Origin: a virus
Taxonomy: Duplodnaviria > Caudoviricetes
Strand: one strand, 5' to 3'
IMG/VR virus record: IMGVR_UViG_3300029930_000011
Coordinates: 1 to 29,139 of that record
DNA length: 29,139 nucleotides
Under the pieces are notes generated by a model. It had not been told where the DNA came from and ran no database searches. It was given only the letters and a program-made list of their open reading frames with translations. The translations under genes and the position numbers were made by a program. Position 1 is the stretch's first letter, and every line of letters begins with the position of its first letter. Shown one piece after another: positions 676 through 13,578 of the stretch.

Positions 676-1923
676 TCAATAAATGCTTCCTTTAACTGTA
701 CTCGAATTAATAGATCCAGAAACATCATATCTACCACCATCAGTTGAGTTAATAGCTTTACCTTCTATTCCCGCAAAGTATTCATCTGTTACCTCTTGTC
801 CGTGTTGTGCCCAGTCACCACCATCACCACCTCTTCCACCATCTTCACCCCTTCCTGCCGCTGGAACTCTATTTCCACCACAAGGTGTTGTAGAATCTGC
901 ACCAGGATTACCAGGTTCACCAGATGTAGAACCGCCTTGATTATTATATCCTCTTGCGTTTCCACCCTTTCCACCTCTACCACCAAGACCTCCTAGGAGA
1001 GTAGTTCTCTTTTCACAGTTACGACCTTGGAGATATTGGGAACACGCAGTGCATCCGCAGTTAAATAAACCACAACAATAACTATAACTTTGACAGCAAC
1101 CACCGCGCCAAGTTGATACTTCAGTAAATCCACCTGGGCACCCAGGCATCCCTCCACAACCCTGTGTTCTTGTACCTTCTACACACAATCCGTCAGAACC
1201 ATTTCTTCCTGTTCTTCCTCTTTCACCTCCTCCACCACCTGCCCAAACTCTAGAACCAGATGAGATGAAAACTCTACAATTATTTCCTACGGCATTAAAC
1301 TGAAGAGCATGAAATCCATTTTCACCATCCTGATCACCATTACTTGTTCCAGCTGGGTTAAACCAGTTTCCTCCTCCTCTACCACCAAATCCTAGAATAG
1401 AACCATAAACTTCAATTCTTACATTATGTACAGTAAATCCGGTAGCTAACTGTGCAGCTGCTTGTCCTGTTTGAACACTACCACAGGTTCCAGTAATTTT
1501 AATAAACTTTTGAATATTTTTAGTGTGATTTCCAGTAAATCCCCCACTCACACCATCTCTACCACTATCGCCACCACCAGACCAATCAATACCTGTCATT
1601 ACCAGTGACGAATTGTATCTACCCATTCTAAATCCAGGTTCATTTGGATTTGATGAATTGTCATCAGTTCCACTTTGAGTTGCAGTATATCTTTTTACTG
1701 AATTTCTAAACTGCGACAGTTTTAAATTAGAACCAGTAGATATTTGTTCATTCTCTGTAGAATCTGGTACAACTGGGTTTTCTGCCGATGTACTGGTGTT
1801 CCTTCTAAGATCTAATGCACTAATTACACCACTAGATCTTTCTGCGAAATTTGTCCTTAAAGAACTAAACGAAATAGGTCCGCTGGAATAATAAGGACCT
1901 GATTTTACTACTGAAACTGACAT
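676..1923 (-). CDS. Glycine-rich receptor-binding protein, T-even gp38 adhesin-like, with Cys-rich insert
   Basis: Gly-rich blocks GSILGFGGRGGG, VWAGGGGGERG, GGLGGRGGKGGNA and GEDGGRGGDGGDW separated by variable loops; follows fibre genes. Confidence 0.65.
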   Translation of the reverse strand: MSVSVVKSGPYYSSGPISFSSLRTNFAERSSGVISALDLRRNTSTSAENPVVPDSTENEQISTGSNLKLSQFRNSVKRYTATQSGTDDNSSNPNEPGFRMGRYNSSLVMTGIDWSGGGDSGRDGVSGGFTGNHTKNIQKFIKITGTCGSVQTGQAAAQLATGFTVHNVRIEVYGSILGFGGRGGGNWFNPAGTSNGDQDGENGFHALQFNAVGNNCRVFISSGSRVWAGGGGGERGRTGRNGSDGLCVEGTRTQGCGGMPGCPGGFTEVSTWRGGCCQSYSYCCGLFNCGCTACSQYLQGRNCEKRTTLLGGLGGRGGKGGNARGYNNQGGSTSGEPGNPGADSTTPCGGNRVPAAGRGEDGGRGGDGGDWAQHGQEVTDEYFAGIEGKAINSTDGGRYDVSGSINSSTVKGSIY

Positions 1924-6848: not shown

Positions 6849-9800
6849 TTATTGTTTTTAAGATCTTCAATTTCTTGCTTGAGTTCTTTGATTGCCTCAA
6901 TTAGCAATGGAACTAACTTATCATATTTAACACTTAAATAGTTGGGATTGAGTGGGGCAGGAGTGACAGCCTCTGGAAGAACTTGCTGCACTTCTTGTGC
7001 AGAAACACCAGAATGAGAAATGGATGGATCATAACCCAGAGATTGTCCAATATCATTAAAGTTATAAGTAAATCCTCTGAGTGAAAGAACTTTGTCTAGA
7101 GCATTATCAATTGGTTTAATGTTTTCTTTCAATCTCATATCAGAAGCAAATGCAGTGATATCACCACCAGCAATAATATCACCAGAAACAGAAACTGATG
7201 CTCCAGTAATTGCTCCACTTACTGTGAGACTTGCACCAGTAATGGCACCAGTTGCTGCCATTTTTCCCGTGGCTTCAACACCATCAGTAACAGTTTTGAA
7301 TTTAAGATTGGCATCATAGTACAAACTAGCAGATCCATTTTCTTCAAACAGAGCTAATTGTTCTGATCCATTTGCACTCTTTACACTCAGTGTATTTGTA
7401 TTGACAAATAAACTTCCTGTTCCACTATCAGTGATGTAGGAGTTTGAACCATCGTGAGTTATAGTTAAGTCATCACTGTTTCCAAACTTTAATATACCAG
7501 CATCGTAAAGTTTAACGTTTCCGCCAAAGAAAGCATTTTGGGCAACACTTAATATACCACATATATTGGTGTTCTTTCCAATACCAACACCACCAGTAAC
7601 AACTAAAGCACCAGTTGTGCAACTTTCTGATTGTCTATCATTTCTAAACTCAACAGTTCCACCCACTCTTAGATTATTATTCAGAATTAACTGACGATTC
7701 ATTCTTACATCTTCGTTGAAAGTCACTGGACCTTCAAACTGAGAAAGAAGTTGATTGGAGTTTCCACCCTCTACAAGAATTCTTTCCTTAACAATGACCT
7801 CATCAAATACAACACTTAATCTGTTTGGATCTTGTCCAGTTACAGTTGGTTTTGGAATATCATAAGAAATAACGGTGCCACTGGCAGCAGCTGTCTTAGT
7901 ATTTCCACTGAAAACATCACCATTACTGTTCATACCAGTGTAGAGAACAGATCCACAAGCAGTTTCTTGTGATTGTGCAAGGAAATCTTCTCTCTCGGTC
8001 AATGTCTTGAGTTGAACCTGTGGCAATCCAGTTGAATAGTTGCCAGGACCATATCCAAGATATTCGAATGTATGTCCAGATGCTCTTGCAATAGATGGAC
8101 GATGGAACTGAACAGGAGCGAGTTTAATTTTTCTGATTGGAACTCCACTTGAATGATTTTCAATGATTGTTCCCATTGATCCACGAATTACCGTGATCTC
8201 ATCATTGCTAGCGCCACTCAAAGTGCTGCTCGTAATTCTCATAATCTCATTATCAATCTGAATATAAGATCCAAGTGGGAATCTCCCAGTTGTTCCAATT
8301 CCAGAGGATTCTCTCAATCTAACTTTGAACGAAGCATCAGATCCAATGCTTTCGTTAAGAACCATTGTTTCTCTATCATAAATGATAAGTCCTCTTATAC
8401 CAAGATTTTCTCCAAGTTTATCCGCACTTGCGCTGTTAGCGGACAAACCATGTTTTAAGAGATAATATGCATCAGAAATTGATTTATCAGTTTTTGCAGA
8501 GAAAGTTCTTACACTGCTTGATGTGCCAACAACAAAATCTCCAAGATTGTTGTTGCTTGAATCTAAAATTCTAAATGAACTACCAGCAAGAAGTCCATGA
8601 TAAGATCCAGCTAAGGCACTGAATGTAGAAATGCCTGTTGTATTATCATAACTATCTTGCTGAATAATTGAAAAAGGTCCTAAAGGAACTACATATTGCC
8701 CAGCGACCGCTATAGGATCTCCTGCGGTTTTTGCAATCGAAATCGCACTTTTGTTTGATGTACTTGAAATTCTAAAATATCCGCCAGCGGTTGTACCAAT
8801 ACCAGTGACCTGAATATAGTTATCTCCTGTAGTGGAGATACCTGCAGTGGTAATTGTAATGTTAGCCTGTGGAGTTCCACCAATTTTAGAACTGTCAAAG
8901 TATAAAGTTTCACCAGTTGTGTATCCAGAACCACCCTCAGTAATGGTGGCAGATGTAACTGCGCCACCACTAACTGTTACAGTTGCGGTCGCTCCATCCC
9001 AAACCGCAGATGCAGGAGAAGAAGCATCATTGAATAGTTTTACGTTATAATAAGTGCCATTTGTATGACCAGATCCACCATTTAATGTTGTATACTGCTT
9101 AACACCAGCAAGTTGATGCTCTCTTGATAATGTAAGTGTCGCAGAGCTTGTTGAGTTTGATACTGAAGAGATTTCAATTCCATAATCAAAAGTTTTATAA
9201 AACTTGTCGATTGTTTCTCTTGTGATACTCTTTTTGAGATCATTAGTAACTATATCACCAAGAGGAGATCTCTTGGCATATGTTTTTGCCGATTGTGGAT
9301 TATCGTTATAATTGTCTTTATCTAGTTGTGGATATAGGTCAACTAGATTTTGTGAATACTTAAGATCAGTAAATTCGGTTACAATGGAGTTAGATGCGTT
9401 TAATAAGTAGAGGTAATATACGCCATCTTGAACTCCATAGATGTATGGAGAAATAACTTCTTTTCTATAAACATAAAGATTTGATTGGCAGTCACTTCGT
9501 TCAAATCTTGGAAGTGCAGTTGTTCTAATGTTTGTATTATTTGTAAAACTTCCTACATCGTGTACAATACCGAAAACATCTGTTGTTGAATAAGTGAAGC
9601 TCTTATCGTTAACTACAGAGACAACATTAAATGTTCCGTTATATCCACGATTTACGGTTCCTGCAGTATTACTAGAACTCGTAACATTTTTAATAATAAT
9701 CTGATCGTTTACTTTCAAATTATGTGGTTTATCAGTTAAGACTGTAACGATTGCTGGAGGACCAGAATCATAAGTACAAGTTGTTATAAATCTTGGATTA

Positions 9801-12749: not shown

Positions 12750-12822
12750 TACCCGTGGACAGATTCGAACTGTCGCTTGAACGATTTTAAGTCGTTTGCC
12801 TCTTCCGCTGGGCTACACGGGC
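12750..12822 (-). tRNA. trnL: tRNA-Leu(TAA), 73 nt, short variable loop, CCA not encoded
   Basis: GCCCGTG TA GCC CAGCGGAAGA GGC A AACGA CTTAAAA TCGTT CAAGC GACAG TTCGAAT CTGTC CACGGGT A. Confidence 0.9.
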
Positions 12823-12827
12823 GTAGG

Positions 12828-12900
12828 TGCTCCTTGTGGGGAACGATCCCACCTCTGCCGAATTATGAGTTCGGTGCATTCACCAGATTGCTAAAGGAGC
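12828..12900 (-). tRNA. tRNA with CAT anticodon, probably Ile2 (lysidine) rather than Met
   Basis: GCTCCTT TA GCA ATCTGGTGAA TGC A CCGAA CTCATAA TTCGG CAGAG GTGGG ATCGTTC CCCAC AAGGAGC A. Has C4:G69 and C5:G68 as in Ile2 and no initiator hallmarks. Confidence 0.8.
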
Positions 12901-12903
12901 GGG

Positions 12904-12991
12904 AGGAGAGATCCATACAGTGAAACAGAAGCGCACAATAAGTCATAGGACTGTTTCATTCCGACTTACAGGCAGGGTTTTTCACTCTCCT
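12904..12991. ncRNA. Putative structured RNA with pseudoknot, family unknown
   Basis: Outer stem AGGAGAG(12904-10)/CTCTCCT(12985-91); inner stem TGAAACAG(12921-28)/CTGTTTCA(12951-58); loop TAAGTC(12939-44) complementary to GACTTA(12963-68). Confidence 0.55.
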
Positions 12992-12998
12992 TTTTTCA

Positions 12999-13050
12999 AG
13001 TAGGTTTCCTGTTGCTTATCCTTTAAAACCCACTACAAAATGGATAAGCA
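12999..13050 (-). ncRNA. H-type pseudoknot RNA, candidate abiF-like motif
   Basis: Perfect 9-bp stem UGCUUAUCC/GGAUAAGCA; loop AGUGGGUUUU pairs with downstream GAAACCUACU (10 bp, 2 G-U, which work only on the minus strand). The family name is from recollection and unverified. Confidence 0.6.
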
Positions 13051-13052
13051 GA

Positions 13053-13140
13053 TACGAGTGCCTGGATTCGAACCAGGTCAAAGCCGCTAATCTGGCGGAA
13101 AGAGTTTATAAGACTCCTCTGACTACCAAGTCTCACTCGC
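13053..13140 (-). tRNA. Non-canonical tRNA with TAT anticodon (nominal Ile), 88 nt, long variable arm
   Basis: GCGAGTG A GAC TTGGTA GTC AGA GGAGT CTTATAA ACTCT TTCCGCCAGATTAGCGGCTTTGA CCTGG TTCGAAT CCAGG CACTCGT A. Confidence 0.8.
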
Positions 13141-13150
13141 AATACAAATA

Positions 13151-13324
13151 CTACTGAGCCTCGTTGTTTAACTCGGTGTGTATTCGTATCAAATCTTCAT
13201 CTGCGGGCATCATCACTGCTGCCTGCCCGTCATCGTTGATGATACCTATGCGCTCACCGTTTTCTACACGAGTCATAAGTTCATCCCATCGTTCTTGAAA
13301 CTCTTCCACGGTAAAAACTTCCAT
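13151..13324 (-). CDS. Phd/YefM antitoxin-like protein, 57 aa; not in the ORF track
   Basis: MEVFTVEEFQERWDELMTRVENGERIGIINDDGQAAVMMPADEDLIRIHTELNNEAQ follows the Phd/YefM beta-alpha-alpha-beta-beta pattern (ELxxRVENGExIxI...AVMMP); TAATG coupling to the upstream ORF. Confidence 0.7.
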   Translation of the reverse strand: MEVFTVEEFQERWDELMTRVENGERIGIINDDGQAAVMMPADEDLIRIHTELNNEAQ

Positions 13325-13524
13325 TAGTTATCATAGATAGCAAGATCCGCATACTCAATCTGTTCAGGATCCAGTTGATCGGTTACCACTTCAAGAACGT
13401 TCATAAACTCTTCAACAGTCTCACATTCTACCAGACGCTCGCTGCCTTGATCACTCAACAGCAGGAAGGTGCGGGTGCAGACATCAATCACAATACCTTG
13501 AACGGCTTCTTGTGCGGTGCTCAT
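13324..13524 (-). CDS. Small acidic hypothetical protein, 66 aa
   Basis: First gene after a perfect sigma70 promoter; stop overlaps the next start; 15 D/E versus 2 R and no K. Confidence 0.8.
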   Translation of the reverse strand: MSTAQEAVQGIVIDVCTRTFLLLSDQGSERLVECETVEEFMNVLEVVTDQLDPEQIEYADLAIYDN

Positions 13525-13549: not shown

Positions 13550-13578
13550 ATTATATAGGGTCTTGGGGCGGGTGTCAA
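13550..13578 (-). promoter_or_regulatory. Perfect-consensus sigma70 promoter
   Basis: TTGACA (13578-13573), 17-bp spacer CCCGCCCCAAGACCCTA, TATAAT (13555-13550). Confidence 0.9.

Follow-up and report, generated by a model that had tools for sequence, protein, structure and literature searches.

A predicted two-domain pseudoknot RNA in cyanophage tRNA clusters, and the possibility that it acts as a decoy of host defence

A compact H-type pseudoknot (PK1), encoded on the minus strand at positions 12999-13050 of a cyanophage sequence, is, as judged from its conservation, the first (5') of the two domains of a predicted non-coding RNA gene, conserved and about 150 nt long. The whole RNA (13050-12905, minus strand) fills the spacer between tRNA-Ile(UAU) and tRNA-Met. 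It belongs to a real RNA family of a known broad kind, the stable small RNAs of phage tRNA clusters, and this family is probably undescribed. We tentatively favour the reading that the ~150-nt RNA, likely cut from an early tRNA precursor, would be a stable decoy for a host RNA-binding defence protein, e.g., a toxin RNase, a role that we hold to be possible rather than probable. The earlier note on this DNA had proposed a phage-borne decoy without a cognate toxin; this idea, which draws on genomic context, is applied here to the ~150-nt RNA rather than to the 52-nt knot.

The window, i.e., the whole stretch of 29,139 nt that was analysed, is a 29-kb linear virus record of 13% estimated completeness. 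It is a fragment of a T4-like cyanophage; among its ORFs are tail and baseplate genes and a gp32 gene of T4-like type, and all 54 records matched by the DNA surrounding the pseudoknot are of Synechococcus and Prochlorococcus phages. On the minus strand, the order is promoter, DUF7294, Phd/YefM-like gene, UAU tRNA-like gene, 150-nt spacer, tRNA-Met and tRNA-Leu. The promoter is of sigma-70 type (TTGACA-17-TATAAT, 13550-13578, 12/12 consensus matches) and likely drives the whole downstream unit, from DUF7294 through the tRNA genes. DUF7294, the first ORF of the unit (13324-13524, 66 aa; PF23966, E 3e-21), is followed by a gene for a 57-aa Phd/YefM-like antitoxin (13151-13324; phrog_375, E 9e-12), whose PF02604 match (E 2e-4) is under the curated cut-off. 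This gene, missed in the earlier note, lies ~100 nt upstream of the RNA, and no toxin partner for it is found in the window. The UAU tRNA-like gene (13053-13140, ARAGORN), which has a long variable arm and is unreported by the Rfam tRNA model, has its 3' end 2 nt before the RNA, its discriminator base being 13053. On the other side, tRNA-Met(CAU) (12828-12900), whose 5' end is 4 nt past the closing helix of the RNA, and tRNA-Leu(UAA) (12750-12822) are called by both ARAGORN and Rfam. All these features are on the minus strand.

Some observations on these neighbours can be added. The long-arm UAU tRNA-like genes of relatives have three different tRNA bodies (L346, L361, L370), across which the variable-arm loop CAGAUUA is nearly unchanged, and other phages have short canonical tRNA-Ile(UAU) genes in their place. 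The Phd/YefM-like gene is widespread (187 related stretches); in almost every one of 80 loci that were retrieved, the next gene is a tRNA or tRNA-like gene with UAU anticodon. Further away, the window holds a Mom-like DNA modification gene (PF25680, 27649-28266, minus strand), another likely anti-restriction function.

Stem 1 of PK1 is made of nine perfect Watson-Crick pairs (13050-13042/13021-13013) and begins 2 nt past the tRNA discriminator base, in agreement with the stem and the starting point initially described. After a U-rich loop 1 (13041-13035), the loop-tail helix comprises in the window the 10 pairs that had been announced (13034-13025/13008-12999, two of them G-U), but the tenth is unpaired in 16/25 sequences, and the conserved stem 2 is therefore one of 9 bp (13034-13026/13007-12999). 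When the 29 kb are scanned for equally strong pseudoknots, this site alone is found, on the minus strand only, which agrees with the strand proposed before. Such a pseudoknot occurs in 0/60 dinucleotide-model resamples of the 29 kb, in a test that is post hoc, its thresholds being taken from the observed element. Nested folding of the site is unremarkable (z -1.2). Of the unit 12999-13050 as first delimited, the pseudoknot is real, but the conserved unit extends further, via a UGAAAA tail or linker (12993-12998, minus strand) and a second domain, to 12905. The UGAAAA tail is invariant in 26/26 distinct sequences and is kept whichever element comes next. An extended stem 2 of 15 bp, pairing loop 1 with the tail, was considered and set aside, as it seems, by reasoning, sterically incompatible with stem 1.

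PK1 homologues are present in 52 other records (25 viral and 27 metagenomic, with some assemblies represented twice), which together with the window make 53 records, 43 distinct 300-nt contexts and 26 distinct pseudoknot sequences, all in cyanophage-type tRNA clusters. They come from viral-contig scans, by patterns and in one case via a protein, and from one metagenome scan, in which 27/29 matches are genuine. A stem-1-anchored scan gives 23 genuine matches out of 49, and the 119 loci listed with a stem-1-only pattern are mostly chance, four of them being homologues. Over 16 counted pairs, 99.5% of the cells are paired among the 26 distinct sequences, while slid pairing registers are only 21-63% paired. 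Both sides have changed in 4/7 counted pairs of stem 1 and in 1/9 pairs of stem 2, which is matched by 0/500 shuffles; the sample consists of closely related sequences and the shuffle control ignores relatedness. The stem-2 covariation is that of one pair, in three sequences, and several of the search patterns prescribed parts of stem 2, or loop 1. The same helix is recovered, however, when stem 1 or the 3' domains serve as the anchor of the scan. In addition, a diverged copy (L419, 45 bits), found by a scan anchored outside stem 2, keeps both stems through compensatory changes, with one A-C mismatch, and retains the U tract and the tail.

Several other candidates are not homologues. Model matches in L243, L316, L317, L318 and L423 were rejected as chance, and so was a 26-bit match in L321, which by inspection falls within a helicase-like reading frame. 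A recurring family (L007, L008 and about 20 similar loci), in which the letters of stem 1 enclose another loop, of 18 nt, is unrelated by the element model.

In PK1, U11-U14, U23-U25 and A44-A46 are invariant in 26/26 distinct sequences. As the loop-1 U tract runs parallel to the AAA with which stem 2 meets the junction, we predict that the two form U-A-U major-groove triples, i.e., a triple helix, which would give the RNA a compact, nuclease-resistant 5' end. Pyrimidine-motif triples are reported to be common among H-type pseudoknots (PMC7583470). Triple-helix pseudoknots of this geometry are those of telomerase RNA and of the SAM-II, SAM-V and preQ1-II riboswitches; the likeness is one of fold, and neither a Rfam match nor a template region nor a regulated gene is found here. 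The RNA could accordingly be considered as a small-molecule-binding aptamer or sponge of SAM-II/SAM-V/preQ1-II architecture, with which it has in common the H-type fold, the U-rich loop and the predicted triples, and the very high conservation of its unpaired bases would suit such a role. This is nevertheless improbable, as there is no Rfam riboswitch match at E<=10, the element downstream is usually a tRNA and not a regulated ORF, and the base preceding the AAA tract varies (U, G, A or C). For the three riboswitch classes named above, we found neither the Rfam match nor the regulated downstream ORF by which they would be recognised.

The second domain is most often of a type that we call A (12905-12990 in the window, minus strand; 33 sequences), which follows PK1 in 40/53 records, window included. 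It is closed by a 6-bp helix (12990-12985/12910-12905) and contains a second H-type pseudoknot, PK2, with a stem (12969-12960/12950-12938) interrupted by a 3-nt bulge and a loop (12957-12951) that pairs with 12928-12922 over 7 bp. In type A, 98.6% of the cells are paired and 10/23 pairs have changed on both sides among the 33 sequences, four of these ten falling in the pseudoknot helix (0/500 shuffles). A shorter hairpin, type B, follows PK1 in 8/53 records and has in common with type A a purine-rich closing strand and short flanking motifs. In three records PK1 is directly followed by tRNA-Leu; as they represent a single context in which tRNA-Met is also missing, they probably derive from one deletion. 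The last two of the 53 records are cut at the contig end.

[quoted passage not shown] A tRNA end (ARAGORN) lies 0-2 nt upstream of PK1 in 28/53 records, and in 13/53 (10/43 contexts) stem 1 is preceded, exactly 7 nt after the -10 box, by a TTG(A/G)CA...TAT(A/G)AT promoter. The promoter form occupies another slot, before tRNA-Gly where the downstream tRNA was called. Upstream of the remaining copies there is a small hairpin (6/53) or something else (6/53), namely five apparent promoter remnants and, in L419, by inspection, a tRNA-like gene. No terminator was found on the minus strand. A small ORF behind a linker AAGGAG was rejected by inspection, its start being 1-2 nt from the SD-like motif and its length variable. 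In RNA libraries, searched as assembled contigs of small run shares, a contig spanning tRNA-Ile and the pseudoknot is present in 1/7 runs. Another RNA-library contig, which joins 12900 to 13051, was considered as a product of splicing; it is best read as an empty-slot relative, because such alleles exist in DNA, and neither contig is counted here as a sign of expression or splicing.

The 3' trimming of tRNA-Ile and the cleavage of tRNA-Met by RNase P belong to standard tRNA end processing. Together, the trimming of the former and the RNase P cut at the latter would release the RNA from its precursor, and where the RNA has its own promoter, transcription would set the 5' end. The start of the RNA 2 nt after the tRNA, seen in many records, might also suggest a ribozyme that, in the manner of the HDV-like theta ribozymes, removes the 3' trailer of the tRNA by self-cleavage, but we give this very little credit. 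HDV-like ribozymes of the theta type have a nested double pseudoknot with P3/L3, P1.1, P4 and a catalytic C; here no P3/L3 or P4 can be drawn upon inspection of the alignment, there is no Rfam ribozyme match, and the RNA is also found after a promoter, with the closest tRNA 36 nt away.

PK1 invariably marks the 5' boundary of a unit, close to a tRNA end in 28/53 records or to a -10 box in 13/53, and might alternatively act in cis, as a 5' shield or processing element stabilising the downstream domain or tRNA. The decay initiated by RNase J/E depends on the 5' end, and a 5' pseudoknot would block it. The 3' domains are never found without PK1 in our pattern scans, PK1 stands directly before tRNA-Leu in three records, and a simple hairpin of ~27 nt fills the same slot in many relatives, all of which would fit a shield. 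In most relatives, however, these tRNAs are processed although the spacer is empty, and the three PK-only records, being one context without tRNA-Met, may reflect one deletion. The invariant unpaired bases go beyond what a mere block would need, and no role would be left for the 3' domain. We therefore judge a shield unlikely.

Among the loci of the Phd-like gene that neighbours the RNA, the 80 closest all lack the element; their Ile-Met spacer is empty or contains a ~27-nt hairpin or a longer ORF, of HNH type where checked. The 50 related records that were searched whole, of which only three are at least 90% complete and the largest had part of their candidates scored, yield one 16-bit noise match. 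The element model has no match in S-SRM01 and S-SKS1, and a match of 16 bits only in S-CREM1. From its absence at syntenic loci and in related records, we conclude that the element is a rare optional cassette. On the host side, covered by one exact degenerate pattern alone, 185,579 prokaryote genomes give two matches, neither of which is able to form stem 1, and BLASTN against plasmids and annotated phages returns noise only. The ~27-nt hairpin is itself conserved in the Ile-Met slot of many relatives (L327, L334, L339, L242) and sometimes lies directly ahead of the pseudoknot; it has no Rfam match in L256/L257.

This distribution bears on the idea of a phage housekeeping or scaffold RNA, comparable to T4 RnaC/RnaD, manA or GOLLD, which would bind a phage or host protein or self-assemble, without relation to defence. 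The RNA is a non-coding, structured unit bounded by tRNA genes, and in this it resembles the stable RNAs RnaC and RnaD, which are also non-coding, 119-139 nt long, encoded in the tRNA cluster of a T4-like phage and of unknown function. The T4 cluster is reported to encode two such RNAs, of 139 and 119 nt, whose function is unknown (PMC9697503). Two further structured RNAs, manA and wcaG, lie in the same cyanophage clusters (see also PMC2864571), and manA RNA is reported to form RNA-only cages (bioRxiv 10.64898/2026.07.01.735769), which also speaks for a scaffold. Loop 1 is moreover complementary to the tail, and could allow intermolecular pairing. On the other hand, the RNA has no similarity to RnaC/D or to any Rfam family. 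RnaC has a tRNA-like fold with a T-arm and gives no sequence or model match, whereas our RNA has two pseudoknots and is optional; manA and wcaG are distinct families that neither overlap nor match it. Because the RNA is absent from 80/80 syntenic loci, a housekeeping role fits poorly, and we consider this explanation rather unlikely.

Another identity had been suggested in the earlier note, in which PK1 was said to resemble the abiF motif and possibly to mimic this antitoxin RNA. The covariance-model check that it called for gives 0 matches of Rfam abiF (RF03085) to the site at E<=10, while the same model scores 52 bits in 2/2 positive controls (S-CREM1 and record L172). Fold and length also differ: the present element is a 58-nt pseudoknot, whereas the abiF of S-CREM1 is a hairpin, abiF (RF03085) being 37 nt long, and abiF motifs are described as hairpins of 33-37 nt (bioRxiv 10.1101/2025.04.15.648962). 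What the two have in common is their location, as abiF motifs do occur as orphans in the same cyanophage tRNA clusters, that of S-CREM1 just before tRNA-Gly. Record L172/L260 even carries both this RNA and a true abiF, as separate elements ~700 nt apart. A mimic of abiF is, with all this, hardly credible, and the orphan cyanophage abiF motifs are better candidates for an AbiF decoy. The S-CREM1 abiF is reported in PMC9964418. No Abi_2 gene is found in the complete S-CREM1 genome or in the L172 record, and abiF is thus an orphan there. True abiF motifs are also seen in cyanophage records L001 (1232-1268), L260 (684-720) and L424.

As for the corresponding proteins, the absence of any abi or toxin gene in the window, as previously stated, is borne out by the 26 ORFs scanned. 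A cognate abiF gene adjoining the element in relatives was likewise not found: Abi_2/AbiF is absent from 5/5 large carrier records (45-62% complete), and neither it nor another toxin family appears among 53 neighbour ORF cluster representatives. Searches for cyanobacterial AbiF are uninformative, with none cyanobacterial among 60 listed of 408 records obtained via plasmids, and no cyanobacterium named among the best 120 of 4609 protein homologues.

The decoy reading is favoured because the RNA is rare yet near-invariant, moves between slots, is under an early promoter and has as neighbours an orphan-looking antitoxin, tRNAs and an orphan abiF. Once released, it would act in trans, binding a host defence protein, a target to which the context points. 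The element moves between tRNA slots, it forms one unit with the orphan-looking Phd/YefM gene, and the same clusters hold a true abiF motif without an Abi_2 gene. The link between the Phd gene and the RNA is not specific, since this gene is present in all 80 loci without the RNA. Phage tRNA-rich regions are reported to counter host defences, and that of T5 is described as having few known anti-defence genes (both PMC11555353), the latter counting against a decoy.

Type III antitoxins are the closest precedent for such a function. They are described as pseudoknots of the H type, with cleavage at A-rich sites (PMC5086642, PMC4627078, PMC12283969), and a phage RNA mimicking ToxI (pseudo-ToxI) has been reported (PMC3475682). 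Our RNA has, like ToxI, CptI and TenpI and like pseudo-ToxI, an H-type pseudoknot core, a similar size and an A-rich 3' tail. It differs from ToxI/CptI/TenpI in being single-copy, without a toxin gene or a 5' tail, and fused to a second domain, and its U-rich loop 1 suits major-groove triples, while ToxI/CptI use the other loop. The PK1 unit is not tandemly repeated, the type III layout (repeats before a terminator and a toxin gene) is absent at the site, and the A-rich flank is the invariant UGAAAA on the 3' side, with nothing comparable on the 5' side. The Rfam ToxI model (RF02519), to which the earlier note had also referred, has no match at the site, its sole match in the window being at 8861-8886 (10.7 bits). 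The decoy reading is weakened by this lack of a ToxI match and of tandem repeats or an A-rich 5' tail, and by the lack of a cellular copy. Also against it, the phyla from which type III systems are reported are few, and the ToxN family occurs chiefly in Firmicutes and Fusobacteria (PMC5086642), and ToxN and Abi_2 profiles give no signal in the one cyanobacterial control genome scanned.

A more far-reaching and doubtful version of the decoy reading is that a triple-helix double-pseudoknot RNA is a sponge for a defence nuclease of picocyanobacteria, regulated by RNA and as yet undescribed, the tRNA clusters of cyanophages being swappable arsenals of RNA decoys. If this were true, such arsenals would hold this RNA, orphan abiF and others, and the RNA would be a bait for finding the host system. 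A decoy role in itself would suggest that cyanobacteria have a defence system under RNA control that has yet to be described.

Whatever its function, the RNA represents a family that is absent from Rfam and has covariation support and sharp boundaries. Rfam scans of the site (gathering, E<=10) return tRNAs and noise only, and those of the diverged and short forms have no match to the element. Neither RNA domain has a match in annotated phages or against T4 RnaC/D. In the accessible text of the literature on abiF and structured RNAs of cyanophages, and on pseudoknot decoys of phages, we found no description of the element. It may be among the candidates of PMC10690425; motif searches in four supplementary files of Fremin 2023, whose tables possibly do not include sequences, give no match. 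Stable RNAs with no assigned function are a long-known feature of T4-like tRNA clusters, and the three natural forms of this one (long, short and pseudoknot-only) are built-in structure-function controls. A compact, optional RNA located beside orphan antitoxins makes the idea of counter-defence directly testable.

Finally, the clusters bear other insertions and cassettes. Several records (L002, 2137-2556; L124, L163, L173), with or without the RNA, have an insertion ahead of tRNA-Met that consists of an HNH-type ORF and a TATAAATA late-promoter hairpin. The tRNA-Leu gene is apparently split by a group I intron in L262 (1793-1980, Rfam) and in L260 (~1040-1390, minus strand, by inspection). In L260 (400-2300, minus strand), a promoter cassette (TTGACA...TATGAT) is repeated in front of nearly all small RNA genes of the cluster.
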